Shown here: piece after piece, positions 3,108-44,501 of the stretch
How positions within the stretch are numbered: the stretch's first letter is position 1
Layout of the letters: the number at the start of each line of letters is the position of its first letter
Assembly: GCA_012799095.1 (NCBI GenBank)
Contig: JAAZLX010000151.1
Span: forward strand, 1 to 62,701
Reading direction: 5' to 3'
Source: Tissierellia bacterium
GTDB taxonomy: Bacteria > Bacillota > Clostridia > Peptostreptococcales > Acidaminobacteraceae
DNA: 62,701 nt
The notes under the pieces: generated by a model
What the model saw: only the letters and a program-made list of their open reading frames with translations
Databases searched by the model: none
Told to the model about the DNA's origin: nothing
Position numbers and translations under genes: made by a program

Positions 3108-4436
3108 ATGAAACGCAAAATCTTTATTATGATCATCGCGATAACATTGTTATTCCCGGTGTTTTTTGCTTTCCGATCTCAACCTATCACTTATTGGTTG
3201 ACCGGATCTGACTATCGGATCAAAGAAAGTCTATCGCAACCTGCCTTAGCCAATTCAGCCAATCTGATCAGTCTTGATTTTATAGAGCCCGACCTGAGTC
3301 GGATGCCTTTTTTACTCAATCTCGAGGGTCAACACTTGTTTGGCGGGCGTCCGTTTTCGGTTGAATTTTATCCCGGAGGGGCTATCCTGACCGACAAAGA
3401 CGACAAGGTCGGTGTGATCGATGACACCGGGCAGACGATCATTCCATTTGATTATGATCGGATCCAGTATAGTGATGATACCTTTATGGCGACAGCCAGC
3501 GGCAAACCGACTGTTTACTATGCTGCATCGGGTCAGCCGCTGTTTCAAACGTCCCAACCGCTTCAAACGCCGTTTTCCGATGGACTGGTATATCTTACCA
3601 ATGGTGTGCATAATACGACCGGCAAGATGATCTTCAATCCGGAAGCACCTATTCTCAAAGGTTTTAAAGACGGTGTGGCAGCTGCGGCCAATGGTCGTGA
3701 GATCGTGGTCTATCGTAAGGATGGTTATATCCTGGCCCGTTTACCCTATAAGGAAGTCTATGACTGGATCGACGGTTATGTCCTGGCGGGAGAGGGGGAC
3801 AACCGGGTCCTGGTCAACTATGACAACGAGGTCCTGCTACGGCTGCGGGTCGAAGGCGATGGTCAGTTTGTTGTGACTACGCCTGCCGGAGATAATTTTG
3901 CCGGGTTGAAATATGATCAGATCGAGTTGTTGGAAGAAGATTCTCTGATGCTGCGCCATCGGCTGACCTATCGGTATTACGATTTTTCAGGCAATCCTCT
4001 GATCAATCCGAATATCGGCTTACTGGAACCGTTTCAGGACGGTTACAGTCTGAGTCAATCAGGTGGTCAAGTTCAGATCTATCATCAGTCCGGCCGACTG
4101 GTCAAATCGGTCCCGGGGGACTATGTCGCCGACTCATTGTCTGAAGGCACCTTTGTGGTAGCTCGTCCCAGTCTGAACGGTCAAGACAGTCACTATCTGT
4201 GTTCGATTACCGGAAAACAACTGAGTTACCGGCCATTAAACCGGATCATGCCGCGACGATTCGGCATATCTGTGGTGTTTCAGGCCGACAAGGGGATCGG
4301 TTATTTGCGGGATGAACCGGCAACGGAGTGGGTGTTTGTTCCCTCCAAGCTGTTACAGGCCGGACGCTGGAGCCTGCCGATCGGCGCAGTGATAACACTG
4401 TTATTATATTTATTTATCCGACGTTACAAATTGTGA
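3108..4436 (+). CDS. WG-repeat (KWG-like) protein with N- and C-terminal hydrophobic helices
   Basis: Repeated units of the type GVIDDTGQTIIPFDYDRI. Hydrophobic N-terminus, and a C-terminal helix (WSLPIGAVITLLLYLFI). Confidence 0.6.
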   Translation: MKRKIFIMIIAITLLFPVFFAFRSQPITYWLTGSDYRIKESLSQPALANSANLISLDFIEPDLSRMPFLLNLEGQHLFGGRPFSVEFYPGGAILTDKDDKVGVIDDTGQTIIPFDYDRIQYSDDTFMATASGKPTVYYAASGQPLFQTSQPLQTPFSDGLVYLTNGVHNTTGKMIFNPEAPILKGFKDGVAAAANGREIVVYRKDGYILARLPYKEVYDWIDGYVLAGEGDNRVLVNYDNEVLLRLRVEGDGQFVVTTPAGDNFAGLKYDQIELLEEDSLMLRHRLTYRYYDFSGNPLINPNIGLLEPFQDGYSLSQSGGQVQIYHQSGRLVKSVPGDYVADSLSEGTFVVARPSLNGQDSHYLCSITGKQLSYRPLNRIMPRRFGISVVFQADKGIGYLRDEPATEWVFVPSKLLQAGRWSLPIGAVITLLLYLFIRRYKL

Positions 4437-4495
4437 TTCCTGTCGGGTTTTCAACGGCAGATATGGGTCTGCTATAATAGTTATAAGGAGAGTCT

Positions 4496-5446
4496 ATGCA
4501 AATATTAATTCGAGATTTTATCACTGGTGACCGGATCGAAGGCTATTATTTGATCAAAGCCCTCAACCTGAAAACCAGTTCCAATAACAAAAAATACCTT
4601 GATCTGATGCTGGCCGACAAGTCGGGTGAGGTCAACGCCAAGATCTGGGATGTCGATCAGGAAATTGAACAGTCCTATCATTTAGGCGATATCATCAAGG
4701 TCCGAGGGGATGTTACCCTGTGGATGGATCAGATGCAATTAAAGGTCATCCGGACCCGTCCCCTGGAATATGGTGAAGAAGTCGACTATGATTCCTTGAT
4801 ACCGAGCGCACCGATGAAAGGTGCCGACATGCTTGCGTTTATTGAAGCCAAGGTATCGGCCCTGGAAGATATTGAAATCAAGCGTTTGCTTGAGCATGTG
4901 ATATCTGTAAATCGGGAAAAACTGTTGTATTATCCGGCGGCCATGAGAAATCATCATGCCATTCGCGGAGGACTGCTTTATCACCTCTACCGAATGATCG
5001 AGAGTGGAGAAGCTCTGTGTAAGATCTATCAACTCAACTGGGATCTGGTCTTAGCCGGGATCCTACTGCATGATATCGACAAGCTGAATGAAATGGAATC
5101 AAATGAATTAGGCATTGTCAGCGGCTATACGACTGACGGTCAATTGCTGGGACATCTCGTCACCGGTGTAGTGGCTGTCGATCGCTGGTGTGAGGAACTC
5201 TCGATCAGTCATGAGATCCGACGACTGATTCAGCACATGATTTTAAGTCATCACTATGAACCGGAATACGGTTCGCCCAAGAAGCCCCACTTTGCCGAAG
5301 CGGAACTGTTACATCATCTTGATATGATCGATGCCAGAATTTATGATATTGAAAAGGCGACCAATGATCTGAAACCGGGTACTTTTTCAGAACCGATTTT
5401 CTCGCTTGAACGCCGCCGGGTCTACCGTCCGATATTAGAGGAATAA
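4496..5446 (+). CDS. yhaM: YhaM-type 3'-5' exoribonuclease (OB-fold plus HD domain)
   Basis: The N-terminal OB-fold region (GYYLIKALNLKTSSNNKKYLDLMLADKSGEVNAKIWD) and HD motif (LLHDIDK) resemble the Bacillus YhaM family. Confidence 0.75.
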   Translation: MQILIRDFITGDRIEGYYLIKALNLKTSSNNKKYLDLMLADKSGEVNAKIWDVDQEIEQSYHLGDIIKVRGDVTLWMDQMQLKVIRTRPLEYGEEVDYDSLIPSAPMKGADMLAFIEAKVSALEDIEIKRLLEHVISVNREKLLYYPAAMRNHHAIRGGLLYHLYRMIESGEALCKIYQLNWDLVLAGILLHDIDKLNEMESNELGIVSGYTTDGQLLGHLVTGVVAVDRWCEELSISHEIRRLIQHMILSHHYEPEYGSPKKPHFAEAELLHHLDMIDARIYDIEKATNDLKPGTFSEPIFSLERRRVYRPILEE

Positions 5447-6495
5447 TGTTTAAACGCAACTGGAGTATCTGGCTCCTGCTCATCCTGACACTTGGGGTTA
5501 TTTTGACCCGATATTTCAGTGACCACTTTGCCCGCGATCAGCGGATCTCGATTGAAGATTTTCGGATCGAAGAAGTGGCATTGGATGCTGATGGCCCACA
5601 GGACACAGCTTATGTCTGGGACGAAGAGATTCGATTGGCAAGTGATGAGAGTCTGTATGATGTTTCAGCCTTTGACGGCATGGCTTATTATGTCACGGCC
5701 GTAAATCAGTTGCGTGAACAGTATGCCTATACCTATCGGTTTTACCGATATGGCACAGAACCTGAATTGATCACCGAACTGCCGGACGCGAAGCCACATC
5801 GGCTCAACATTGCGGCTATTGATAGTTCGGCGATTATTTTTGCCAAAGAATATTCTGACGGCAAGACGGAGTTGGCCGGTTATCATTTTGCCAGTGGACA
5901 ATTTTCAGCCATCAGTCAGTGGGATGGACCGCCTTCACGAGCCAAGATCAGTTATTTTCAAAACACCGTAGGTTTGGTCATCGATAACACCTGGGGCATT
6001 TATAATCTCCAGGGACAGATCCGCCCGGTGAGAAAGAATTTGCCTGCCGGGTCCATCGTCCGTTCATTAAGTGCGGGACCGGGTTCTGCTCTGATCTATT
6101 ATGAAGTGGATGAGCTGCGTTATTTGATGTTATATCAGTTTGGTTCGCAGCAGAGCACAACCTGGCTGGTCAATGACCGAGTCAACCGGATCTACCTTCA
6201 GACCGGTTGGGCAATAACTCAATCTGACAATGGACTTCAGCTGTATACCTGGCCCAATCTATCTATCCAGCGTCTGACTGTCACCGGCAATCTGAATTCA
6301 TTGCAGGTGATAAGCGACCGGTTGATCGATATCCGTTTGCTGGGTTCGCGTAACAGACCATATATCTTTGACATGTCAGATAGGCAGACGATATTCAGCC
6401 AGCAGGTCGACGTGTCCGGCTCAGCCAATGAGACCATCAGATACTATTATGTACCGGCGGTCGATCGGATCAACCGATTACGATTTGTCGATTAG
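5446..6495 (+). CDS. Hypothetical membrane-anchored protein
   Basis: N-terminal TM helix (WSIWLLLILTLGVILT). The start overlaps the yhaM stop (TAATG). No recognisable domain. Confidence 0.5.
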   Translation: MFKRNWSIWLLLILTLGVILTRYFSDHFARDQRISIEDFRIEEVALDADGPQDTAYVWDEEIRLASDESLYDVSAFDGMAYYVTAVNQLREQYAYTYRFYRYGTEPELITELPDAKPHRLNIAAIDSSAIIFAKEYSDGKTELAGYHFASGQFSAISQWDGPPSRAKISYFQNTVGLVIDNTWGIYNLQGQIRPVRKNLPAGSIVRSLSAGPGSALIYYEVDELRYLMLYQFGSQQSTTWLVNDRVNRIYLQTGWAITQSDNGLQLYTWPNLSIQRLTVTGNLNSLQVISDRLIDIRLLGSRNRPYIFDMSDRQTIFSQQVDVSGSANETIRYYYVPAVDRINRLRFVD

Positions 6496-19705: not shown

Positions 19706-22444
19706 TTGTCAAGAACGATCCCCTTTGCAACGGATTACTCTCCGACCCGACGTTCGCAAATCCTGTTGGACTTTGCCAATCACATCAATCGAACCAAGCC
19801 CGGCTCGAAAGGTGCGCTGACTTTTGAGGACCCGGAATACTATGTCATGGAAAACATCGTCAATGATGACATGGCCAAAGTAGGCATGGGTGCGATGTTT
19901 AAAACTCATCGGAACGCACAGGAAATAGCTGATGCGACCGGCATCCCGCTGGAAGAAACCAAGCATCATCTTGAAGCTTTAATGGATGCAGGAGCGATGT
20001 TCTGGGAAAACGTGGATGGCGTGGATGAATACTGGCTGGAAGTCTGGGTGCCAGGTCACATGGAAATGATTGCCAATAACCGAAAGAACACGTCAAAGTA
20101 TCCAGAGATCGCCTATGCGTTTGATGCTTATGGCAAGAAAAAAGGCTTGATCGCTCCCGGGGTTATGCCGATGGGAATGACTCCAATGCGAGTTATTCCG
20201 ATCGAATCAGCCATCGATAGCAATTCCAGACGGGCCAGCTTTGAAGAAATCTCACATTACCTCGATGCTCATTCTGTTTTTTCGGTATCAGACTGTTCAT
20301 GTCGAACCGTACGTGAAGTCATGCATGAAGGTTGCGGACATCTCAAAGAGGAAATGTGCATCCAATTAGGTTATGCGGCTGAGTATTACATAAGGACCGG
20401 ACGCGGTCGTTCGATCGATCGGGAAGAAGCTAAAGAAATTCTTTTGAAAGCCGAAGCCAATGGATTGATGCATCAGATTCCCAACATGGATGGTTCAGGA
20501 GAGACACATGCCATCTGTAACTGCTGCGGATGCAGTTGTCTGGCGCTTCGCAACGCAACTATGTTTGGAAATCCTGACTTTAGCCGCTCGAATTATGTGG
20601 CTGTAATCGATGAGGACAAGTGTGTTGCCTGCGGTGAATGTGTTGAAAACTGTCCCGTCAACGCCCTGAAACTCGGACAAAAGGTTAAATCCAGGACCCC
20701 ACTGCCAAAGGTCGACCCGCACCAGGATCGGCCGGATAATACGGCTTGGGGGGTCGAGAAATGGGATCCGGATTACCGGATCAATCGACAGGTCGTTATG
20801 AGTTCAGGCACCAGTCCGTGTAAATCGGAGTGTCCGGCTCATATCGGGATTCAGGGTTATATCAAGCTGGCTTCAGAGGGTCGCTATCGTGACGCCTTGG
20901 AATTGATCAAACAGGAAAATCCCTTCCCGGCAGTTTGTGGTCATATTTGTCCACGCTATTGTGAAAAAGCCTGTACCAGAAACTCGGTCGATGAATCGGT
21001 CGCAGTCGATGAAATAAAGCGCTTTATTGCCGAACAGGACATGAAGGAAGAACATCGCTTCGTACCGCAAAAGAAACATGACTATAGTGATATAAAAGTG
21101 GCAATCGTCGGGGCCGGTCCGGCGGGACTGTCTTGTGCCTACTATCTGGCGATCGATAACTATGATGTCACAGTCTTTGAAAAAGAAGAGGCACTCGGCG
21201 GTATGTTGACCTGGGGTATTCCCAACTTCCGTTTGGAGCGGTCAGTCATTGAGTCGGAGATCGATGTATTACGTGAGCTTGGCGTCAAGTTTCAAACCGG
21301 AGTCGAAATCGGTAACGACATAACCCTGAATGAACTGCGTTCTCAAGGATTCAAAGCCTTTTATTTGGCGATCGGTGCCCAGGGAGGAAGACGACTGAAC
21401 ATTGAAGGTGAGGACGCTCAAGGAGTCATGACCGGGATCGATTTTTTACGCCGAGTCAACCAGAGCGAGGAACAAATGCTTACGGGTCACACCATTGTCA
21501 TCGGTGGCGGAAATGTCGCGATCGATGTCGCAAGAACGGCTATCCGGGCTGGTTCCGAAGATGTACGTATGCTTTGTCTCGAGCAGCCGGAAGAGATGCC
21601 GGCCTTGCCTGAAGAGATCCGGGAAGCGAGTCAAGAAGGCATCGTGATCGAAAACGGCTGGGGGCCAAAACGGATCGTGACCCGTGATGGGCACGTGGTT
21701 GGTGTTGAATTCAAAAAATGTCTCCGGGTCTTTGATGAAGACCATCGCTTCCGTCCGATGTTTGATGAGGAGTCGAGCTATTTTATCGAAGCTGATAATG
21801 TGCTCATTTCAGTCGGTCAATCGATCGAATGGGGAAATCTGTTAGACGGCTCAAACGCCAAGTGTAATCCCAATCAGACGATCCAGGCGGATGCCACGAC
21901 CCTTCAAACAGCTCAAAGTGATCTATTTGTGGGTGGTGATGCTTATACCGGCCCCAAGTTTGCTATTGATGCAGTTGCTCAGGGAAAAGAAGGCGCGATC
22001 TCGATTCATCGTTTTGTCCATCCGGGGCAAGATTTGCTGTTGGGACGAACCAAGCGCGACTATCGGGCGTTTGATCAAGCCAATGTCGATCTGAGCGGAT
22101 TTGATATGAAGCCACGTCAGCAAGCTTATGCAGTCCATGATGATTCGACCCGAAAAAGCTTCCGTGATTTCTCCAAAAGCTTTACACCGGAGCAGATCCT
22201 ACAGGAAAGTGATCGCTGTTTAAGTTGTGGCCGGGTGTATGTCGACCCGTATGTTTGTGTTGGATGCGGTCAATGCACTACCAAATGTAAATTCGATGCG
22301 ATTCATTTGGAAAAAGTGACTGATGTCGAAGGCACCCATGTGACAAAGCTAAAGCCGTATGTAATTCGAAATGTCTTAAAAACCAAAAGCAAGCGGTTCA
22401 TTCATCAGACCAAGAAGCGACTGATGGGTGAGCGGAATGCATGA
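19706..22444 (+). CDS. Multidomain Fe-S flavoprotein: Cys-rich N-domain, ferredoxin domains and a GltD-like NAD(P)H/FAD oxidoreductase
   Basis: TTG start behind AGGAGG. Motifs: CSCRT...CNCCGCSC, CVACGECVENCP, a GltD-type Cys cluster (CPAHIGIQGY...CGHICPRYCEKAC), dinucleotide fold VAIVGAGPAGLSCAYYL, and C-terminal CVGCGQCTTKC. Confidence 0.75.
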   Translation: MSRTIPFATDYSPTRRSQILLDFANHINRTKPGSKGALTFEDPEYYVMENIVNDDMAKVGMGAMFKTHRNAQEIADATGIPLEETKHHLEALMDAGAMFWENVDGVDEYWLEVWVPGHMEMIANNRKNTSKYPEIAYAFDAYGKKKGLIAPGVMPMGMTPMRVIPIESAIDSNSRRASFEEISHYLDAHSVFSVSDCSCRTVREVMHEGCGHLKEEMCIQLGYAAEYYIRTGRGRSIDREEAKEILLKAEANGLMHQIPNMDGSGETHAICNCCGCSCLALRNATMFGNPDFSRSNYVAVIDEDKCVACGECVENCPVNALKLGQKVKSRTPLPKVDPHQDRPDNTAWGVEKWDPDYRINRQVVMSSGTSPCKSECPAHIGIQGYIKLASEGRYRDALELIKQENPFPAVCGHICPRYCEKACTRNSVDESVAVDEIKRFIAEQDMKEEHRFVPQKKHDYSDIKVAIVGAGPAGLSCAYYLAIDNYDVTVFEKEEALGGMLTWGIPNFRLERSVIESEIDVLRELGVKFQTGVEIGNDITLNELRSQGFKAFYLAIGAQGGRRLNIEGEDAQGVMTGIDFLRRVNQSEEQMLTGHTIVIGGGNVAIDVARTAIRAGSEDVRMLCLEQPEEMPALPEEIREASQEGIVIENGWGPKRIVTRDGHVVGVEFKKCLRVFDEDHRFRPMFDEESSYFIEADNVLISVGQSIEWGNLLDGSNAKCNPNQTIQADATTLQTAQSDLFVGGDAYTGPKFAIDAVAQGKEGAISIHRFVHPGQDLLLGRTKRDYRAFDQANVDLSGFDMKPRQQAYAVHDDSTRKSFRDFSKSFTPEQILQESDRCLSCGRVYVDPYVCVGCGQCTTKCKFDAIHLEKVTDVEGTHVTKLKPYVIRNVLKTKSKRFIHQTKKRLMGERNA

Positions 22445-22811
22445 ACTGGGAATCATGTTCGAGGTGATTAAACGGGTCGAGGCGGTAGCAAAACAGCATC
22501 AAGTCGATCGAGTCGAAAAAATTGTGCTTCAGGTGGGCGAAATCGCCACCGTTATTCCTCATTTTTTACGCGAGTGTTATCCAGTGGCTGTCGACCGGAC
22601 CGACTTTGTTGATACGGAATTGGTGATCGAAATGATACCGGCTAATGGTTGCTGTCGTCAGTGCGATATCGTATATCACCTGATGAAGGATGAGGGCCGT
22701 TGTCCCAACTGTCATCAGATGAACTTTGATGAACTGAGTGGTCGGGAATTCTCAATTAAAGAAATAGTTGTGGCTGAAGGAGGAAAAAATGGATCAAGTC
22801 CGAATTATTGA
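22437..22811 (+). CDS. hypA: Nickel metallochaperone HypA
   Basis: N-terminal MHE nickel motif and zinc site CRQC...CPNC. The ATG at 22437 overlaps the upstream stop by 8 nt. Confidence 0.85.
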   Translation: MHELGIMFEVIKRVEAVAKQHQVDRVEKIVLQVGEIATVIPHFLRECYPVAVDRTDFVDTELVIEMIPANGCCRQCDIVYHLMKDEGRCPNCHQMNFDELSGREFSIKEIVVAEGGKNGSSPNY

Positions 22812-23454
22812 AATAAAAGAAGGGGTATTCGAACAGAACAATCAAAAGGCACAGGAATTGCGTGATAGTCTGAAGCAGGAAAAAGTATTTCTGTTGAACC
22901 TGATGAGTGCACCCGGGTCGGGTAAAACCACCACCTTGGTACAAACGATCAAAGGGCTGCAGGATGAAATGAAAATTGGGATCATGGAGGCGGATATCGA
23001 TTCCGATGTTGATGCCCGGACCATTCAACAAACCGGTGCTCGAGTGGTACAACTCCACACCGGAGGGATGTGCCATCTGGATGCCGAAATGACCCGTCAG
23101 GGAATCGATGCTCTGGGCCGCGAAGACCTCGACCTGATCGTGCTGGAAAATGTCGGCAACCTGGTATGTCCGGCGGAGTTTGATACCGGTTCGACCAAGA
23201 ATGCCATGATTTTAAGTGTCCCGGAAGGAGACGACAAGCCCTTGAAGTATCCTCTGATGTTTGCTGTTGCCGATGTGGTCTTAGTCAACAAGATGGATGT
23301 AGCTGAGCATTTTGACTTTGATTTGGAGCGATTTAAAGACAATGTTCGACTTAGAAATCCGGAGGCGATCATACTTCCTATATCAGCCCGCACGGGAGAA
23401 GGCATGGAACCCTGGCTTGATTGGCTACGCCAGCAGATCGAGCGACAGCAATAG
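22789..23454 (+). CDS. hypB: Nickel-incorporation GTPase HypB
   Basis: P-loop SAPGSGKTT, metal site GGMCH and ENVGNLVCPAEFD, NKMD motif. I chose the ATG at 22789 behind GGAGG. It overlaps the hypA 3' end. Confidence 0.85.
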   Translation: MDQVRIIEIKEGVFEQNNQKAQELRDSLKQEKVFLLNLMSAPGSGKTTTLVQTIKGLQDEMKIGIMEADIDSDVDARTIQQTGARVVQLHTGGMCHLDAEMTRQGIDALGREDLDLIVLENVGNLVCPAEFDTGSTKNAMILSVPEGDDKPLKYPLMFAVADVVLVNKMDVAEHFDFDLERFKDNVRLRNPEAIILPISARTGEGMEPWLDWLRQQIERQQ

Positions 23455-35211: not shown

Positions 35212-36951
35212 ATGCTGACAATTATTCAAGACTTGACAGTCGAAGCCATGATGAGCACGAAAATCAGCCAGATCGATCCTGATCAGACAATTTACGATGC
35301 CTTGGTGACGATGAATACAGACGGAGTCAATGAATTGATCATCGGTTCCACATCAAAGCCGGTAGGAATTATCACGGTGACTGACATAACCCGTTCAAAC
35401 GTTCATTTACCGAACGATCTTAGTCAACCGCTTCATCGACAGTTCCTGCGGGAGCTGGTGACGATACATCCCAAGGCACGGGCGGAAGAAGCCCGCAATA
35501 TCATGCGTGAACATGGCATTGGCCGTTTACCGGTCATTCAAGATGGGGTGATCGTCGGTATCGTTCGAACGATCGACATTATGACCTACTATTATCAGGA
35601 AATTGAGCAGATACGAAATACCTATATTAAAATATTGGATGAAATTCACGAAGGAGTCTGTGTCGTCGACCGTGATGGAATTGTCGTTACCTGGAGCAAT
35701 CATTCCGCACGGCTGTACAAAATACCGCCGGAAGAAATTCTACACCGGCCGATCGATGAAAAATTCCCCAGTGCATTGTTACGTCAAGTCCTTCAGACCG
35801 GAAAAGCAGTCGACAATACGATCCACTCGCCGCGCAAGGGGACGGTGGTCAACATCTCTGCTGCCCCACTATATAACCAGGGAGAATTGATCGGGGCTAT
35901 TTCTACCGATCGCGACATCACTGATGTCATGAATCTGACCAACGAACTGGCTGACACCAGAAACCGTCTGGAATTTTTACAAGATGAAGTTGCCAAATTG
36001 AGCGAGACGGCTTACAACTTTGATGCGGTAATAGGTACGAGCAGTGAAATAACCGATGTCATCAAACTGGCCGCAACCGTAGCGCCGACTAATTCCTCGA
36101 TTTTGATCACCGGTGAAAGCGGTACCGGAAAAGAGTTGTTTGCCCGCTCGATCCATGCCGCCAGCGGGAGAAACGGTTTATTTGTTCCCATCAACTGTTC
36201 AGCTATCCCCGAGAGCTTATTTGAATCGGAAATGTTCGGTTATGCGGCCGGCGCTTTTACCGGAGCGCTCAATGAAGGCAAAGTAGGCAAGTTTGAGTTA
36301 GCCAATAACGGTACATTGTTTTTAGATGAGATCGGTGACATGCCACTCAGTATGCAGGCAAAAATGCTCCGGGTGATCCAAGATAAAGTAATTACCCGCA
36401 TCGGGGACAATCAGTTGATCAAAACAAATGTCAGGATCATCAGTGCTACCCATCGCGATTTGAAAGAATTGGTCGATCAGGGGAAGTTTCGAGAGGATCT
36501 GTTTTACCGTCTCAATGTAGTCGCACTGGATATTCCGTCCTTGAAGGAACGGGCGGAGGATATTCCGCTGTTTGTCCAGCATTATCTCCAGGAATTCAGT
36601 CATGACAATATGAAACCGATCAAACCGATCGATTCTGGCGTGATAGAACAAATGATGCGTTATTCCTGGCCGGGAAATATCCGCGAGCTGAGAAACGTTG
36701 TCGAGCAGATGGTCATTTTTGCCGATGAACGTTTAACGATCGATCTATTGCCGGTCCATATCCGCCGATCTCAGGACACAACTTCGTCTAACAGGCGGGA
36801 ACTGGCCAGCTCAGCGGCTGACCTGGAGCAGATGATGATCGAAAAGGCACTAAAAGAGGCCGACGGGAACAAAGCCAGAGCGGCCCGTATCTTAGGTATT
36901 TCAAGACCGACACTATATTATAAATTGAGTAAATACAATCTGGATGTCTAA
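35212..36951 (+). CDS. prdR: Sigma-54-dependent transcriptional activator (CBS pair, PAS, AAA+, Fis-type HTH), PrdR-like
   Basis: GESGTGKELFARSIH, GAFTGA, ESEMFGY and a C-terminal HTH (ARILGISRPTLYYKL). It lies immediately upstream of a sigma-54 promoter and the prd genes. Confidence 0.85.
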   Translation: MLTIIQDLTVEAMMSTKISQIDPDQTIYDALVTMNTDGVNELIIGSTSKPVGIITVTDITRSNVHLPNDLSQPLHRQFLRELVTIHPKARAEEARNIMREHGIGRLPVIQDGVIVGIVRTIDIMTYYYQEIEQIRNTYIKILDEIHEGVCVVDRDGIVVTWSNHSARLYKIPPEEILHRPIDEKFPSALLRQVLQTGKAVDNTIHSPRKGTVVNISAAPLYNQGELIGAISTDRDITDVMNLTNELADTRNRLEFLQDEVAKLSETAYNFDAVIGTSSEITDVIKLAATVAPTNSSILITGESGTGKELFARSIHAASGRNGLFVPINCSAIPESLFESEMFGYAAGAFTGALNEGKVGKFELANNGTLFLDEIGDMPLSMQAKMLRVIQDKVITRIGDNQLIKTNVRIISATHRDLKELVDQGKFREDLFYRLNVVALDIPSLKERAEDIPLFVQHYLQEFSHDNMKPIKPIDSGVIEQMMRYSWPGNIRELRNVVEQMVIFADERLTIDLLPVHIRRSQDTTSSNRRELASSAADLEQMMIEKALKEADGNKARAARILGISRPTLYYKLSKYNLDV

Positions 36952-37111
36952 TTTCTGACGGTGTCTAAACACTTTACACTATCGTGCAAACGCGATGGAA
37001 AATGAACTTTTCTACTTTTTTTTGCGAGTATTAGATCATAAACCGTCAAAAACTTGACACCCATAATAAAGTCAAACTCGTCAAACCCTTGCAATCACTG
37101 TAAAAAAATAT

Positions 37112-37127
37112 TGGCATGATATTTGCT
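37112..37127 (+). promoter_or_regulatory. Sigma-54 (-24/-12) promoter of the proline reductase operon
   Basis: TGGCATGATATTTGCT has GG and GC spaced exactly as in the consensus TGGCACG-N4-TTGCW. It lies about 30 nt before the prdC start. Confidence 0.8.
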
Positions 37128-37156
37128 TCTATTAAACAGTGAAAGGAGGTGACAAC

Positions 37157-38437
37157 GTGAGAGTTAAGTTATTACTCAAACAGCATGTTGGCGCACCATC
37201 GAGTCCAATGGTCTCAGTAGGTGACCAGGTCGAACGCGGACAGCGTATTGCCAAACGCGAAGGTCTGGGCGCTAATATACATAGCTCCTTAAGTGGAGAA
37301 GTCGTGGCTGTAACTGATGAGTACATTGAAATTGACGGGGAAAAGACCGACAGTTTTCTGCCTATCGAAGCAAGTGATAATCTGCTGGACATGGTTGAAG
37401 CTGCCGGGATCGTCGGCGCCGGTGGTGCCGGTTTTCCTGCGCATGTCAAGCTGAATATTTCATTGCCCGGTGGTTACATTATAGCCAATGCCGCTGAATG
37501 TGAGCCGGTATTGCATCACAACATAACCATGTTGGAAACAGAACCCGAAAAAGTGATTTCGGGTCTTTTGCATGCCAAGAAAATGATTTCAGCCGAGCAC
37601 GCTTATGTGGCGATCAAAGCCAAATATACTCAGGCAATCAAAGCCATCAAAAAAGTCAAAGATCAAGTTGGTGGTTTTGAACTGAAAATTCTACCCGATA
37701 TGTATCCATCCGGGGATGAGCGCGTCATCGTACGTGAAATCCTGGGCGTGGAACTGGAACCGGGTGCTCTGCCAAGTGTGGCCCATGCTGTGATCCAAAA
37801 TGTTGAAACGCTGAAGCGGATCGCCGAAGCGATCGACGAACGAAAGCCGTTTATCGACAAGGACATGACTGTCGGGGGACGAGTTCGAAATGCCAATTCA
37901 GGAGTGGTCTTCTTAGATCAACCGATTGGACGACGGGTTGTCGAATTGATCGAAGAGTGTGGTGGTTATCAAGAGCCACACGGAGAAATCGTACTGGGGG
38001 GTCCGTTTACCGGTGCCACCGGCGGTGAAGAATCGATCATAACCAAGACGATGGGAGCGGTCCTGGTGGCTATGCCATTTCCGACCGAAAAGTCTAAAAT
38101 GGGCCTGTTGGTCTGTGAATGCGGGGCCAGTGAACAGCGAATGCGCGACATTGCTACCGGTATGGGAGCAGAAATCGTAGCCGTTGAACATTGTAAACGA
38201 ATGACAGAAGTCGGCGGACGTGTCCGCTGTGAACTGCCCGGAGTTTGTCCGGGACAAGCTGAAAAAATATTACTTATGAGAAAAAAAGGTATGGATGCCA
38301 TTCTTGCCGGAACGTGCGGGGACTGAACGAATACTGTGATGACAGTTGCTCCTAGGTTAGGAGTAAAAACATATCATACGACCGATCATGTCCTTCGAGC
38401 TACCGGTGAACGTCTGGTCCGCCGTACCAAAGATTAA
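37157..38437 (+). CDS. prdC: Proline reductase-associated electron transfer protein PrdC (RnfC-like), read through in-frame TGA 38324-38326 as selenocysteine
   Basis: GTG start behind AAAGGAGGTG. RnfC-like motif GIVGAGGAGFPAHVKL. The TGA sits in the context C-G-D-TGA, followed by 36 further open codons ending at a TAA inside the prdA Shine-Dalgarno. The total is 426 aa. Confidence 0.65.
38346..38366 (+). promoter_or_regulatory. Candidate SECIS hairpin for the prdC UGA
   Basis: 8-bp stem TTGCTCCT / AGGAGTAA (one G-U) with apical loop AGGTT. The loop starts 27 nt after the UGA. Confidence 0.45.
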
Positions 38438-38449
38438 GGAGGAAATGAC

Positions 38450-40336
38450 ATGTCGATAACTGCAGAAACCGTTCAGGCACATGCCAATGACCCGGCTGTC
38501 TTATGCTGCCGGACTGAAAAGGGTGTTGTCATCGGTCCCGACCATCTGGAAGATCCCGGTATCTTCGAAGACCTGGTTGATTCAGGACTTCTCGAGATTT
38601 CGGATGATGTACTGACCTTGTCACAGGTCATGGGCGCTACCATGAAAGAAACCGCGGACTCGCTGACACCACTGACACCGGCTTTAGTGGAAGGCTTTGC
38701 CGCAGCTGAAAAAGCTCCGGCCGAAGAGAAAGAAGAAGTTGCTGAAGTAGAACAAACTGCTTCGGTAGTTTCTGCTGCTCCGACCATGACCACCAGCTCA
38801 CCCGGCATGGTCAAGATCCACATTGGAAAAGGCAAAGACATTACCCTTGAATTCCCGCTATCAGTCTCAGGTGCGATTGCCGCAGCTCCGGCTGATGCAG
38901 CTCCCCTGGCCGTTGCCTCGGAAGCACAGCAACCTGAAGCAGTTCAAGCAGCTCCGGCTGTCGGTGAGGCTCGCCTGCTCCGTTCGTTAGTCAAGAAACA
39001 CTATCAAATCGATAAGGTCGAAATGGCTGATGAAACCAAGATTGAAGGAACAACACTATATCTGCGCAAAGACATTACCAAAGGCGCATTTGATGATCAT
39101 GGTCTAGTTAAAAATATTGAAATAGAAATCATCACCAAAGAAGACTATGGTAAATATTCTGAAACCATCATGGACGTTCAGCCCATCGCTACCAAAGAAG
39201 GCGACTCTGTGCTGGGCAGTGGTGTCACCCGGGTCCTCGACGGCGTTATCGTTGTCGTGACCGGAACGGATGAAAATGGGGTTCAGATCGGTGAATTCGG
39301 TTCATCAGAAGGTGAAATGGATCGTAACATTATGTGGAATCGTCCCGGAGCACCGGATCATGGCGAGATCTTCATTAAAGCCCAGGTCACCATTCAAGCC
39401 GGAACCGGTATGGAACGTCGTGGACCATTGGCCGCTCATAAAGCAGTCGACCACGTAACCCAGGAAATCCGCGAAATAATGAAAAAACTGGACGACTCTT
39501 TGGTCGTTGAAGAAGAAGTATTGGAACAATTCCGTCGTCCCGGCAAGAAAAAAGTCGTTATCATCAAAGAAATCATGGGCCAGGGCGCCATGCATGATAA
39601 CTTGATTCTTCCGATGGAGCCGGTGGGTGTACTTGGCGCGAAGCCTAACGTCGATCTGGGGAACCTCCCGGTCGTACTGAGCCCGCTTGAAGTACTTGAT
39701 GGTGGTATCCATGCCTTGACTTGTATTGGCCCTGCCTCGAAGGAAAATAGCCGTCACTACTGGCGTGAACCGCTCGTACTCGAAGCCATGCAAGACGAAG
39801 AACTCGACCTGTGCGGCGTTGTATTTGTCGGATCACCTCAAATCAATAGTGAAAAGTTCTATGTCTCCAACCGTCTCGGTATGACGATTGAAACCATGGA
39901 TGTTGACGGTGCCTTTATTGGAACCGAAGGGTTCGGAAACAACCACATCGACTTCGCCTCTCACCATGAGCAAGTCGGAAGTCGGGGAATTCCGGTCGTC
40001 GGTCTGAGCTATTGTGCTGTTCAAGGCGCATTGGTCACAGGTAACGAGTATATGACAGCCATGATCGATCTCAATAAGAGCAAACAGGGAATTGAAAACG
40101 AGATTCTGGCAAACAACACCTTGTGTCATGAGGATGCTGTCAGGGCGATCGCCATGTTGAAAGCCGTTATGGCCGGTGAAACGATCAAAAAGGCAGAACG
40201 CAAGTGGAATCCGTCCGTCAAAGAACTCAATGTTGACATTATTGAGGATGTTACCGGCAAAACGGTAGAGCTGGTAGATAATGAGCAAGTACTTGAGAAG
40301 AGCAGAAAACGACGCGAAATTTACGAAGTCGAATAA
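38450..40336 (+). CDS. prdA: D-proline reductase proprotein PrdA (pyruvoyl enzyme precursor)
   Basis: 628 aa with an Ala/Pro/Glu-rich linker. The conserved self-cleavage context ...GGIHALT-CIGPASKE has its Cys codon at 39722-39724. Confidence 0.85.
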   Translation: MSITAETVQAHANDPAVLCCRTEKGVVIGPDHLEDPGIFEDLVDSGLLEISDDVLTLSQVMGATMKETADSLTPLTPALVEGFAAAEKAPAEEKEEVAEVEQTASVVSAAPTMTTSSPGMVKIHIGKGKDITLEFPLSVSGAIAAAPADAAPLAVASEAQQPEAVQAAPAVGEARLLRSLVKKHYQIDKVEMADETKIEGTTLYLRKDITKGAFDDHGLVKNIEIEIITKEDYGKYSETIMDVQPIATKEGDSVLGSGVTRVLDGVIVVVTGTDENGVQIGEFGSSEGEMDRNIMWNRPGAPDHGEIFIKAQVTIQAGTGMERRGPLAAHKAVDHVTQEIREIMKKLDDSLVVEEEVLEQFRRPGKKKVVIIKEIMGQGAMHDNLILPMEPVGVLGAKPNVDLGNLPVVLSPLEVLDGGIHALTCIGPASKENSRHYWREPLVLEAMQDEELDLCGVVFVGSPQINSEKFYVSNRLGMTIETMDVDGAFIGTEGFGNNHIDFASHHEQVGSRGIPVVGLSYCAVQGALVTGNEYMTAMIDLNKSKQGIENEILANNTLCHEDAVRAIAMLKAVMAGETIKKAERKWNPSVKELNVDIIEDVTGKTVELVDNEQVLEKSRKRREIYEVE

Positions 40337-40590
40337 TGAACTATCAAGATAAAATCAATTACTTCGAAGGCATTATCACTGAAGTCGATGATTGCAGTGT
40401 CTCGATCGATCTCAAAGGTCGTCTGGGACACATGAAACTGCCTCGTCGCATGGTGATCACCGATTATGAGCTTACGATCGGCCAGGAGGTCGGCTTTCGG
40501 ATGAGTTTTCCCGAAGTCCTCCGAGAAGAGCCGGATGAGCATTATCGAGCCAATATCTTAAAACGATCCAAAAAGGAGGAAGGACAATGA
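40336..40590 (+). CDS. Small conserved-position prd-cluster protein (84 aa), function unknown
   Basis: Overlaps the prdA stop (TAATG) and the prdB start (ATGA). Basic/acidic C-terminal tail. Confidence 0.55.
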   Translation: MNYQDKINYFEGIITEVDDCSVSIDLKGRLGHMKLPRRMVITDYELTIGQEVGFRMSFPEVLREEPDEHYRANILKRSKKEEGQ

Positions 40591-41309
40591 ACTCAGAGTA
40601 TAAAGGGTTGCAATCGGAAATTTTTGTTCCGATCACCCCTCCGCCAGTTTGGGCTCCGGTAACCAAAGAACTAAAAGACATGCGGGTTGCCCTGGCATCA
40701 GCTGCCGGAATTCACTTAAAAACAGACAAACGCTTCAACCTGGCCGGAGATTTTTCGTTCCGGATCATCCCGGGAGATGCCGCAGCTGAAGACATGATGG
40801 TATCTCATGGCGGATATGACAACGGTGACGTCAACAAGGACATCAACTGCATGTTCCCGATCGATCCCCTGCGTCAACTGGTCAAAGAAGGTTACATTAA
40901 GGAAATCGCTCCGGTCCACTTCGGCTTTATGGGCGGCGGCGGAGACCAGGATAAGTTTAAAAACGAAACCGGTCCCGAAATTGCCCGTTTGTTAAAAGAA
41001 GAGAACGTCGACGCCGTCGTTCTCACGGCTGGCTGAGGCACCTGTCATCGCAGTGCTGTTATTGTACAGCGTGCGATCGAGGAATCGGGGATTCCTACTA
41101 TAGTTATTGCTGCTTTACCTCCGGTTGTCCGTCAAAGCGGAACACCGCGAGCTGTTGCTCCTCTTGTGCCGATGGGCGCGAATGCCGGAGCACCGCATGA
41201 CACCGTAATGCAACGGGCGATCGTTCATGATGCCCTGAAGTATCTGGTTGAGATTCCTTCAGCCGGCAAAATCGTTCCACTGCCTTACGAATACGTCGCA
41301 AAAGTTTAA
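40587..41309 (+). CDS. prdB: D-proline reductase selenoprotein PrdB, with TGA 41034-41036 decoded as selenocysteine
   Basis: The track stops at ...VVLTAG. Read-through gives U-GTCHRSAVIVQRAIEESGIPTIVIAALPPV...YEYVAKV and a stop at TAA 41307-41309. The total of 240 aa and the motif TAG-U-GTC match GrdB/PrdB selenoproteins. Confidence 0.85.
41049..41075 (+). promoter_or_regulatory. Candidate SECIS hairpin for the prdB UGA
   Basis: CGCA-GT-GCTGT [TATTGT] ACAGC-G-TGCG, starting 13 nt after the UGA. Confidence 0.45.
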
Positions 41310-41321
41310 CTTGTCAGCTCT

Positions 41322-41343
41322 AGCCGCACCATGCGGTGCGGCT
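41322..41343 (+). other. GC-rich intercistronic hairpin between prdB and prdD
   Basis: 9-bp stem AGCCGCACC / GGTGCGGCT with loop ATGC. Only a delayed, weak T-run (GGTTTTATT) follows. Confidence 0.5.
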
Positions 41344-41368
41344 GGGGTCTGGTTTTATTGGGGGATCG

Positions 41369-42118
41369 ATGAATCAACAATTACGCAAGCTGGTGATCAA
41401 AACCTATCATGTTCAAGACATTGAATGGTCCGACAAGGTAGGATACAACCATCACACACTAAGTCTGCCGAAACGGACTCATGCGGACCTACTCGATCAC
41501 CCGCATGTCAAAAGCCTCGATGTCAGCTTAATTCGTCCCGGGGAGGATAGACAGATTTATTGCATTATGGATATCCTGCCGATCGCGACCAAGGTATTAG
41601 GCCGACTGGGGGATGGCATCACTCACACAATGACCGGGGTTTATGTCATGATCACCGGTGCCGACGAAACGGGTGAATCGGTCCAAAACTTTGGAAGTTC
41701 TGAAGGTTTGTTGTCAGAGCAACTGTATCGTGGCCGAGCCGGGACGCCGGGAGAGAACGACTTGATCATTCATATCGAAGTCCGACTCAAGGCCGGTAGT
41801 CAGATTTTGCGACAGGCGGTCAATGAGGGTCATGCCCAGGCGGACAGATATGTTCAACTGATCCGTGAGATGTTAAAACAGGTCAGCCCAAATGACTATG
41901 ATGAGCGACATACTTTTGTCGATCAGGTCAGGACCGGCAAACCCAAGGTGGCGATCGTCAAGATGGTCGCAGCCCAGGGAACCATGTATGACAACCTGCT
42001 GTTACCGAGAGAGCCGGCCGGCTATGCCGGAGGCAAATCAGTTGTTGACATGGAAGGTGTTCCAGTGATGTTAAGCCCGAATGAATACCGTGACGGCGCA
42101 CTTCGGGCATTGACCTAA
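41369..42118 (+). CDS. prdD: PrdD (paralog of the N-terminal part of PrdA)
   Basis: Aligns by eye with the PrdA central region (DILPIATK, VMITGADETGESVQNFGSSEG, AIVKMVAAQGTMYDNLLLP) and ends ...GALRALT. I chose the ATG at 41369. Confidence 0.8.
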   Translation: MNQQLRKLVIKTYHVQDIEWSDKVGYNHHTLSLPKRTHADLLDHPHVKSLDVSLIRPGEDRQIYCIMDILPIATKVLGRLGDGITHTMTGVYVMITGADETGESVQNFGSSEGLLSEQLYRGRAGTPGENDLIIHIEVRLKAGSQILRQAVNEGHAQADRYVQLIREMLKQVSPNDYDERHTFVDQVRTGKPKVAIVKMVAAQGTMYDNLLLPREPAGYAGGKSVVDMEGVPVMLSPNEYRDGALRALT

Positions 42119-42128
42119 GGAGGACAGT

Positions 42129-42596
42129 ATGGGCGTAGGACCATCAACCAAAGAAACAAGTCTGCACCATTTCCGAGACCCATTGCTCGATCTGTTTCAA
42201 AACGATGAAGACATTGATTTTGTTGGGTTTATCGTATCGGGCACACCACAATCGAATGATGAAAAGGATTATGTTGCCGCCCGAACAGGTGCCTGGCTCG
42301 AAGCAATGCGGGTCGATGGGGTATTGGTGTCGATCGACGGCTGGGGCAACTCCCACGTCGACTTTGCCCAGACGTTTGAGGAAATCGGACGCCGTGGCAT
42401 CCCATCTGTCGGCTTAAGCTTCATTGGGACTCAGGCGAAATTTGTGGTCGAAAACGAGTACATGCAGACAATCGTCGACTTTAACAAATCGAAAGCCGGG
42501 ATAGAAACAACAGTCGTCGGTGAAAATACCGTTGACTCACTCGATGCGCGTAAAGCGCTGGCGTTACTTAAACTCAAAATGAGAGGAAAAAAATGA
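42129..42596 (+). CDS. prdE: PrdE (paralog of the C-terminal part of PrdA)
   Basis: Begins MGVGPSTKETSLHHFRDP, matching PrdA CIGPASKENSRHYWREP. The remainder parallels the PrdA C-terminus. Confidence 0.8.
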   Translation: MGVGPSTKETSLHHFRDPLLDLFQNDEDIDFVGFIVSGTPQSNDEKDYVAARTGAWLEAMRVDGVLVSIDGWGNSHVDFAQTFEEIGRRGIPSVGLSFIGTQAKFVVENEYMQTIVDFNKSKAGIETTVVGENTVDSLDARKALALLKLKMRGKK

Positions 42597-43597
42597 CTTT
42601 TACAAGAAGCATACAGGTGATTGACTCCCACACGGCTGGCGAACCCACTCGTGTAGTAGTCGGCGGTATCCCGCAAATTCCTGGCAATACCATGATTGAA
42701 AAAAAAGAATACTTAATCGAACATCTCGATCACATTCGGACAGCACTGATGCTGGAACCGCGGGGCCATAATGACATGTTTGGTTCCGTATTGACAGCTG
42801 CTGCCAACCCGGAAGCCGATTTCGGCATCATCTTTATGGACGGCGGCGGATATCTCAATATGTGCGGTCATGGTTCCATCGGAGCTGCCACTGTTGCGGT
42901 AGAAACCGGAATCGTACCCATGGTAGAGCCGGAAACGATCGTCAAGATGGACGCACCGGCCGGACTGATCGAAGCCCATGTCAAAGTGGAAAATGGCCGT
43001 GTGACTGAAGTCAGCTTTGTCAATGTCCCGGCATTCCATTATCTCAAAGGTGTTGAGATGGAATTCGGCGAATACGGCAAGTTGAAGTTTGACATTTCAT
43101 TTGGCGGCAGCTTCTTTGCCATTATTGAAGCCAAGCAGATCGGTATTGAAATCAAACCGGAAAATGCTGCTAAATTGAATGAATTCGGCATCGCCTTCCG
43201 CGACAAAATCAATCAGACAATTAAAGTCGAACATCCTCTCCTGCCGGCCATCAATACAGTGGACCTGGTTGAAATCTATGATGAACCGACACATCCCGAC
43301 GCCGATTACAAAAATGTAGTTGTCTTCGGTCAGGGTCAGCTCGACCGTTCACCTTGCGGCACAGGCACATCAGCCAAAATGGCGACCCTGGTATCAAAAG
43401 GCGAATTGGACATGGATACGAAATTCACCTATGAGAGTATCTCCGGAACATTGTTCTTTGGACGGGCTCTCGAGAAGACGACGGTTGGCGAATATGATGC
43501 CATCATTCCGGAAATTACCGGCAGTGCATACATAACCGCTTTTTCACAAATGGTCATTGATGACAATGATCCATTAAAACACGGATTTAAATTATAA
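42593..43597 (+). CDS. prdF: Proline racemase
   Basis: Two catalytic Cys motifs, NMCGHGSIG and DRSPCGTGTSA. ATGA overlap with prdE. Confidence 0.9.
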   Translation: MTFTRSIQVIDSHTAGEPTRVVVGGIPQIPGNTMIEKKEYLIEHLDHIRTALMLEPRGHNDMFGSVLTAAANPEADFGIIFMDGGGYLNMCGHGSIGAATVAVETGIVPMVEPETIVKMDAPAGLIEAHVKVENGRVTEVSFVNVPAFHYLKGVEMEFGEYGKLKFDISFGGSFFAIIEAKQIGIEIKPENAAKLNEFGIAFRDKINQTIKVEHPLLPAINTVDLVEIYDEPTHPDADYKNVVVFGQGQLDRSPCGTGTSAKMATLVSKGELDMDTKFTYESISGTLFFGRALEKTTVGEYDAIIPEITGSAYITAFSQMVIDDNDPLKHGFKL

Positions 43598-43613: not shown

Positions 43614-44501
43614 ATGATTACTGCAGTTCTTGGAGCTCTCGGCGCATTAACCGCCTGGTTTGGTGTAGTTTTTGCAAAAGACCTGGTCGAGCACAAAGAC
43701 AATCTCGAAAAAGAAACGAACTTTGTAACATCCGGTATTATTGGTTTCGTGGTTAACTTTTTCGACACACTCGGTATCGGATCATTTGCACCGGCTACCG
43801 CATTACTACGTGGCTTTAAACAAATTCAAGACCGAATTATTCCCGGTACACTCAACGTATCCTGTACTATCCCGGTCGTAACGGAAGCCTTTATCTTTAT
43901 CACAGCGATCGAAGTGGAAACGATCACTCTGGTTTCGATGCTGCTTGCTGCAACCTTAGGCGCTTACTTAGGAGCCGGAATCATTTCCAAGCTCCCCGAA
44001 AGAAGCATCCAGCTGGTCATGGGTGTTGCCCTGTTAGTCGCCGCAGTGATCTTCTTTGCTCAACAAATGGAATGGATGCCGGGTGGTGGCGATGCTATCG
44101 GTCTCAGCGGTATCAAACTGATCATCGGTATTGTCGGTAACTTTATCCTCGGTGCACTGATGACCGCAGGTATTGGTCTGTATGCTCCGAACATGGTTCT
44201 GGTATCTCTACTTGGCATGAGTCCGGCAACTGCATTCCCGATCATGATGGGAAGCTGTGCTTTTTTGATGCCGGTCGCTTCGGTGAAATTCATCCGCGAA
44301 GGTGCATACAACCGTAAAGCTTCCTTAGCCATCACCGTCTTAGGTTTTGTCAGCGTCTTTGTCGCCGCCTACCTGGTCACATCGATGCCGCTGTACTGGC
44401 TCAAATGGCTCGTCACAGTTGTTGTAACATACACCGGTATTACTCTGTTGTATGCTGCCAGCAAGAGCAAAAATGTTCCGGCAAAACCGGAAGACATCTA
44501 A
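43614..44501 (+). CDS. Integral membrane protein, TauE/SafE-like (DUF81) putative transporter; last gene of the prd cluster
   Basis: About 8 hydrophobic segments and Gly-rich helices (FFDTLGIGSFAP). AGGAGG Shine-Dalgarno 16 nt after prdF. Confidence 0.5.
   Translation: MITAVLGALGALTAWFGVVFAKDLVEHKDNLEKETNFVTSGIIGFVVNFFDTLGIGSFAPATALLRGFKQIQDRIIPGTLNVSCTIPVVTEAFIFITAIEVETITLVSMLLAATLGAYLGAGIISKLPERSIQLVMGVALLVAAVIFFAQQMEWMPGGGDAIGLSGIKLIIGIVGNFILGALMTAGIGLYAPNMVLVSLLGMSPATAFPIMMGSCAFLMPVASVKFIREGAYNRKASLAITVLGFVSVFVAAYLVTSMPLYWLKWLVTVVVTYTGITLLYAASKSKNVPAKPEDI

Follow-up and report, generated by a model that had tools for sequence, protein, structure and literature searches.

A complete D-proline reductase cluster

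The window, i.e., the whole stretch of 62,701 nucleotides that was analysed, carries a complete D-proline reductase cluster on its forward strand, for which NCBIfam and Pfam matches gave the gene order prdR-prdC-prdA-prdH-prdB-prdD-prdE-prdF (35212-43597). The genes and smaller features of this region are the following:

35212-36951, + strand: prdR, sigma-54-dependent activator (NF041552 TF_PrdR, 732.5 bits)
37112-37127, + strand: sigma-54-type -24/-12 promoter-like site TGGCATGATATTTGCT, the sole match in the window (0.05 expected by chance)
37157-38437, + strand: prdC read through its UGA, 426 aa (TIGR04481; Pfam RnfC_N and Complex1_51K)
38315-38326, + strand: predicted CxxU redox motif Cys387-Gly-Asp-Sec390 (TGC GGG GAC TGA)
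38324-38326, + strand: in-frame UGA, predicted selenocysteine codon for residue 390 (alignment column and independent assembly)
38327-38434, + strand: C-terminal tail TNTVMTVAPRLGVKTYHTTDHVLRATGERLVRRTKD, 36 codons (conserved in Cys and Sec homologues)
38335-38378, + strand: extended SECIS fold, comprising the upper hairpin and a 7-bp lower stem (38335-38341 with 38372-38378)
38346-38366, + strand: SECIS upper stem-loop (fold, conservation in 22 Sec forms and frozen synonymous sites)
38435-38442, + strand: TAA, the true prdC stop on this reading, overlapping the prdA Shine-Dalgarno TAAGGAGG (sequence)
38450-40336, + strand: prdA, D-proline reductase proprotein (TIGR04480, 970 bits)
40336-40590, + strand: small prdH-like gene with a CBO2463/CBO2479 domain (NF041553, 94.9 bits)
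40587-41309, + strand: prdB, selenoprotein with TGA at 41034-41036 (Sec150 of 240; TIGR04483)
41336-42118, + strand: prdD (Pfam and NCBIfam)
42129-42596, + strand: prdE (Pfam and NCBIfam)
42593-43597, + strand: prdF, proline racemase (Pfam and NCBIfam)
43614-44501, + strand: TauE/SafE-family membrane protein gene (PF01925, no NCBIfam match)

The score of prdR lies below the equivalog cut-off of 795, yet NF041552 is by far its top match. The promoter-like site TGGCATGATATTTGCT is located just downstream of prdR and 30 nt upstream of the prdC start. The small protein PrdH is encoded together with PrdA and PrdB (PMC11229817), and the prdH-like gene found here probably corresponds to it. The TauE/SafE gene follows directly 3' of prdF, in the place that a final gene of the prd cluster would have.

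The second gene of the cluster in which a TGA interrupts the reading frame is prdB, which the ORF track splits at its canonical Sec codon, leaving 149 of 240 aa, while the read-through protein matches TIGR04483 with 406.6 bits over model positions 3-238 of 238. The hairpin downstream of this codon (~41047-41077) has the apical loop UUAUUG, neither of the first two loop nucleotides being G, and as folded it lies outside the consensus rule for bacterial SECIS (bSECIS) loops.

Elsewhere in the window, a gene at 19706-22444 (+) encodes a 912-aa protein with Fer4 and Fer4_20 (4Fe-4S) and pyridine-nucleotide-disulphide oxidoreductase domains, and a CobW/HypB/UreG-type GTPase gene comes next, at 22768-23454 (+). 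Three consecutive ORFs at 3108-6495 (+), of 442, 316 and 349 aa, had no Pfam match at E up to 1e-8, and a DUF4368 fragment is present at 95-556.

The in-frame TGA of prdC and the tail beyond it

The prdC gene starts at GTG 37157, with the Shine-Dalgarno AAAGGAGG upstream, and its product has an N-terminal domain resembling RnfC, a domain that binds FMN/NADH and a C-terminal domain rich in Cys. The ORF list closes the gene at 38326, giving an apparent gap of 123 nt before prdA. The closing TGA (38324-38326) is in frame as codon 390, at the end of TGC GGG GAC TGA (38315-38326, +), and the product is therefore 389 aa if translation terminates there and 426 aa if it is read through. The next stop in this frame is the TAA at 38435-38437, which lies inside TAAGGAGG (38435-42), and the prdA ATG follows at 38450, 7 nt past that motif. 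A preliminary description of this DNA had proposed that the TGA encodes selenocysteine, and what it reported of the sequence itself holds, i.e., the Cys-Gly-Asp-TGA (CxxU) context, the frame of 36 codons reaching a TAA within the prdA Shine-Dalgarno, the apparent gap of 123 nt and the read-through length of 426 aa. By our own estimate, (61/64)^36, 36 open codons are expected by chance in ~18% of cases, so the significance of the tail comes from its conservation and not from the open frame.

This conservation is apparent at the level of the family model. Read through, with Sec written as Cys, the protein matches NCBIfam TIGR04481, the PrdC equivalog model with a cut-off of 490 bits, with a score of 574.6 bits over model positions 2-425 of 425, whereas the 389-aa form scores 510.9 bits and covers positions 2-389 only. 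The tail thus contributes 63.7 bits (~64) and completes the coverage of the model, which indicates that it belongs to the PrdC family model.

Homologues were compared at the DNA level using 80 listed prdC loci, each from another species, of which 77 were informative, so that together with the window 78 genes were read directly. The preliminary description had called for such an alignment, with Cys or Sec in this column and a conserved tail as the support to be looked for, and both were found: the column holds TGA in 22 genes and TGC/TGT in 56, i.e., Cys or TGA in 78 of 78, and the 36-aa tail is kept in every one, Cys and TGA forms alike. The opposite outcome, in which homologues end at this position with no tail homology, was not seen, since the tail is conserved and the 56 Cys forms run on continuously. 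All 22 TGA forms remain open for 35-43 further codons and have in common the tail consensus TNTVM.VAPRLGVPVYH.TDHVLR, and residues C387 and D389 do not vary among the aligned sequences. In Thermosediminibacter oceani, for example, PrdC is read continuously in its Cys form (CSDCTNTVMGVAPKL...). Among the best 120 protein hits the closest, leaving aside a 99% twin, is 72% identical to the window protein, and the closest named genome among the matches listed is that of Halanaerobium salsuginis, with a locus 64% identical.

Database proteins give a different picture of the same region. The claim that automated callers truncate PrdC was borne out, as 106 of the best 120 hits are 385-400 aa long, cover 90-91% of the query and end at the TGA codon; entries named PrdC by NCBI are found among these. 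Coverage of the query is 99-100% for the other 14 hits, and the 13 of them that were aligned have Cys (7) or Trp (6) at the Sec column. The proteins with Trp are P0005, P0007, P0008, P0013, P0015 and P0026. P0005 and the Paraclostridium dentum locus L040 (L040:4171) have identical tails; the DNA of L040 has TGA at this position, and the W of P0005 therefore points to translation with a table in which TGA is Trp.

These observations have to be weighed against three other readings of the codon. Taken as a genuine stop, the TGA would end PrdC at 389 aa and the 123 nt would be an untranslated spacer with a hairpin serving as an attenuator or mRNA-stability element. This is the model that gene callers output and at which most of the best 120 hits end, and the shorter protein does exceed the TIGR04481 cut-off (510.9 vs 490). 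However, in all 22 TGA forms the supposed spacer is open, in frame and conserved as protein sequence, and in the 56 Cys forms it is simply part of an uninterrupted coding sequence. It also supplies TIGR04481 positions 390-425, and no T-run follows the hairpin, all of which makes a genuine stop very improbable. Even less credit can be given to a sequencing or assembly error, or to a recent nonsense mutation of a Cys codon that would leave prdC a pseudogene. The TGA is indeed one substitution away from TGC or TGT, but the same TGA and an identical tail are present in an independent assembly, Logan ERR10900027 (locus L081), which is 99.2% identical to the window over 5.7 kb and in which 11 of 12 differences within prdC are synonymous, indicating purifying selection. 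Moreover, the TGA recurs in this column in 21 further species, together with a dedicated conserved hairpin.

An alternative genetic code, in which TGA would be a sense codon for Trp or Gly (tables 4 or 25) and the residue would not be Sec, was raised by the six homologues with W at the Sec column. In the window, TGA is the stop of 15 of 42 supported genes, which points to the standard code, at least one of the W entries (P0005) derives from a TGA, and homologues have Cys rather than Trp in the column. We rejected this explanation on the strength of the 15 TGA stops and of the match between P0005 and L040, and its probability is close to nil. As such, the UGA at 38324-38326 is very probably decoded as selenocysteine, yielding a PrdC of 426 aa; the proposal of the preliminary description is supported by the homologue column, the conservation of the tail, the HMM match and the SECIS hairpin considered below.

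A uniform hairpin downstream of the UGA

The hairpin at 38346-38366 has 8-9 bp and the loop GGU (equivalently A-GGU-U). Its conserved core GCTCCTAGGTTAGGAGT, at 38348-38364, occurs once in the window, with the apical loop GGU at 38355-38357, 28 nt past the UGA. Folded alone it reaches -9.3 kcal/mol (z -3.6), a value equalled in 0 of 200 shuffles, and the extended fold at 38335-38378 reaches -14.6 kcal/mol (z -4.5, more exactly -4.52), again equalled in 0 of 200 shuffles. The lower stem (38335-41/38372-78) showed no conservation in the Sec forms of other species, whose lower stems differ from one another, and it was therefore left out of the conserved element.

Published constraints on bSECIS elements require an apical loop of 3-9 nt on a stem of 4-16 bp, a G in the first two loop positions within the pattern N1-G-[G|U]-N-N2, a spacing of 16-37 nt and an MFE of -7.5 kcal/mol or lower (PMC13188914). 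The prdC hairpin is real and satisfies all four (loop A-G-G-U-U, spacing 28 nt, MFE -9.3), and its conservation in the 22 TGA forms likewise supports the candidate SECIS that had been placed at 38346-38366. Searches of Rfam gave no match at gathering thresholds in the whole window, nor at E up to 10 in 38280-38460, a result explained by Rfam having no model for the prdC SECIS.

Across species, GCUCCUA-GGU-UAGGAGU is nearly invariant and stands at the same offset in 22 of 22 TGA forms, with a mean pairwise nucleotide identity of 94% over the hairpin vs 63% in the 150 nt upstream of the UGA. The two arms are paired in 97.4% of cells across the Sec forms, a figure that drops to 30-51% if the 3' arm is shifted by 1-3 columns, and compensatory double changes (U-A to C-G and U-A to G-U) are seen at two of the seven pairs. 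The constraint extends to the choice of codons, which in the stem-loop of the Sec forms are GCT (19/22), CCT (21/22), AGG (21/22), TTA (20/22) and GGA (19/22). Over the hairpin, third codon positions have an entropy of 0-0.7 bit in Sec forms vs 1.0-1.9 bits in Cys forms, whereas neighbouring four-fold-degenerate codons in the Sec forms have 1.2-1.9 bits and their Thr and Val codons vary freely. Synonymous sites over the hairpin are thus frozen in the Sec forms, and this is the most telling of the results on the SECIS.

The Cys forms do not have the GCUCCUA-GGU-UAGGAGU hairpin; their peptide at this point is APKL or GPKM, compared with APRLG in the Sec forms, and their mean 30-nt folding energy is -5.4 vs -9.0 kcal/mol (Mann-Whitney p = 2.6e-7). 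The SECIS core dictates the local peptide. Four Cys-type loci with GPKMGL (L036, L056, L060 and L061) do have a 7-bp hairpin ~25-41 nt after the Cys codon, with -7 to -10 kcal/mol and a loop of AGA or AAA, not GGU, e.g., GGUCCUA-AGA-UGGGACU. This hairpin may have arisen as a side effect of the conserved Pro and Gly codons, or it may be what is left of a SECIS.

The 17-nt hairpin GCUCCUAGGUUAGGAGU is near-invariant in the Sec-type prdC of very distant lineages, namely Halanaerobium, Natronincola, Niallia/Neobacillus, Enterococcus, Gemella, Megasphaera, Psychrilyobacter and Peptostreptococcaceae. This uniformity might also stem from a Sec-type prd operon having spread horizontally. Whether the prdC SECIS makes up a distinct, definable RNA family we judge to be evenly balanced. 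We also observed the core outside the classical Stickland clostridia, at loci L003, L005, L006, L008, L011, L012, L045, L072, L080, L010, L014 and L004, whose hosts include Niallia and Neobacillus (Bacillaceae), Enterococcus raffinosus, malodoratus and florum, four Gemella species, Megasphaera, Colibacter and Psychrilyobacter (Fusobacteriota).

Decoding, proposed redox role and known relatives

Pfam and NCBIfam scans of the 42 window ORFs found none of selA, selB and selD in the 62.7-kb window, and ARAGORN found no tRNA in it, hence no selC. That the host decodes Sec is suggested by the canonical Sec-TGA of prdB. As generally in bacteria, the hairpin at 38346-38366 of the mRNA would be bound by SelB together with its Sec-tRNA(Sec), leading to the insertion of Sec at codon 390, after which translation would go on for 36 codons past the UGA to the TAA at 38435-38437 and produce a protein with the centre Cys387-Gly-Asp-Sec390. 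PrdC may then take electrons from NADH via its FMN domain and use them to reduce its own C387/U390 selenide-sulphide to the selenol/thiol form. By exchange, the reduced CxxU centre would in turn return the oxidised Se-S bond of PrdB to its reduced state and so complete the catalytic cycle of proline reduction. This relay from NADH through FMN and CxxU to PrdB is a proposal of Fonknechten et al. 2010 (PMC3091704) rather than a demonstrated mechanism. Under selenium limitation, termination at the UGA would be predicted to leave a 389-aa protein with neither Sec nor tail. The PrdC of C. difficile has Cys at the Sec position (PMC3091704), which suggests that Sec is advantageous but not obligatory.

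The practical value of the reading lies in annotation. Gene callers cut PrdC at 389 aa and PrdB at 149 aa, and in PrdC this costs the Sec of the proposed CxxU redox centre as well as the 36-aa tail, so that public databases very often hold the protein cut short or with Trp at the Sec column. Correct calls bear on how the selenium dependence of Stickland (proline) fermentation is inferred in uncultured anaerobes. No new biology is implied, and a CxxU PrdC is textbook-level knowledge in the selenoproteome field. Two points are mildly new, i.e., the uniformity of the prdC SECIS core across distant lineages, where it imposes the APRLG peptide, and the frequency with which PrdC is truncated, or given Trp at the Sec column, in public protein databases.

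One of the known systems close to it is RnfC (subunit C of the Rnf complex; PDB 7zc6_C, 9eri_C and 8ahx_C), with which PrdC shares the barrel-sandwich N-terminal and FMN/NADH domains; the alignments span PrdC residues 2-300, and up to 6-366 for 7zc6_C, with E-values of 1e-31 to 1e-39. RnfC has a 2x[4Fe-4S] ferredoxin domain. The window protein differs from it in its Cys-rich CxxU C-terminal domain and in being encoded in a prd operon, not an rnf operon, and an assignment as RnfC was rejected, as its score against TIGR01945 (198.6 bits) is below the cut-off of 245.95 and it has no Fer4 Pfam match. Its RNA element can likewise be set beside the consensus bacterial SECIS of bSECISearch (PMC13188914), within which the loop size, the G[G|U] motif, the 28-nt spacing and the energy all fall; in contrast to that generic model, the prdC element is far more conserved in sequence across species, and it has no Rfam entry.

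Within the PrdC family, the Cys-type proteins of Clostridioides difficile and Thermosediminibacter oceani have the same length and tail as the window protein and share with it six invariant Cys (C320, C322, C346, C358, C364 and C387), but Cys (TGC/TGT) replaces Sec, the SECIS hairpin is lacking and APKL/GPKM takes the place of APRLG. The PrdC known as form 2 (UPGQ; PMC13188914) belongs to the same family, TIGR04481, and carries its Sec in the xPGQ motif. We considered this form for the window gene and rejected it, because the xPGQ position is occupied by Cys364 (GVCPGQ). The window PrdC is instead very probably the selenoprotein listed in selenoproteome reviews, under TIGR04481, as 'PrdC form 1, CxxU' (PMC9312934, PMC13188914), a form already known since 2010. 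In that year the PrdC of C. sticklandii (CLOST_2236) was described as a CxxU selenoprotein with Sec392 of 428 residues (Fonknechten et al. 2010, PMC3091704); the precedent that the preliminary description had mentioned, a Sec-containing PrdC in a Stickland fermenter, is therefore real. The two proteins share the operon position upstream of prdA and prdB, the domain order, the C-x-x-U motif and the tail after Sec, with Sec at 392 of 428 in C. sticklandii vs a predicted 390 of 426 in the window, and they differ only in host and sequence.
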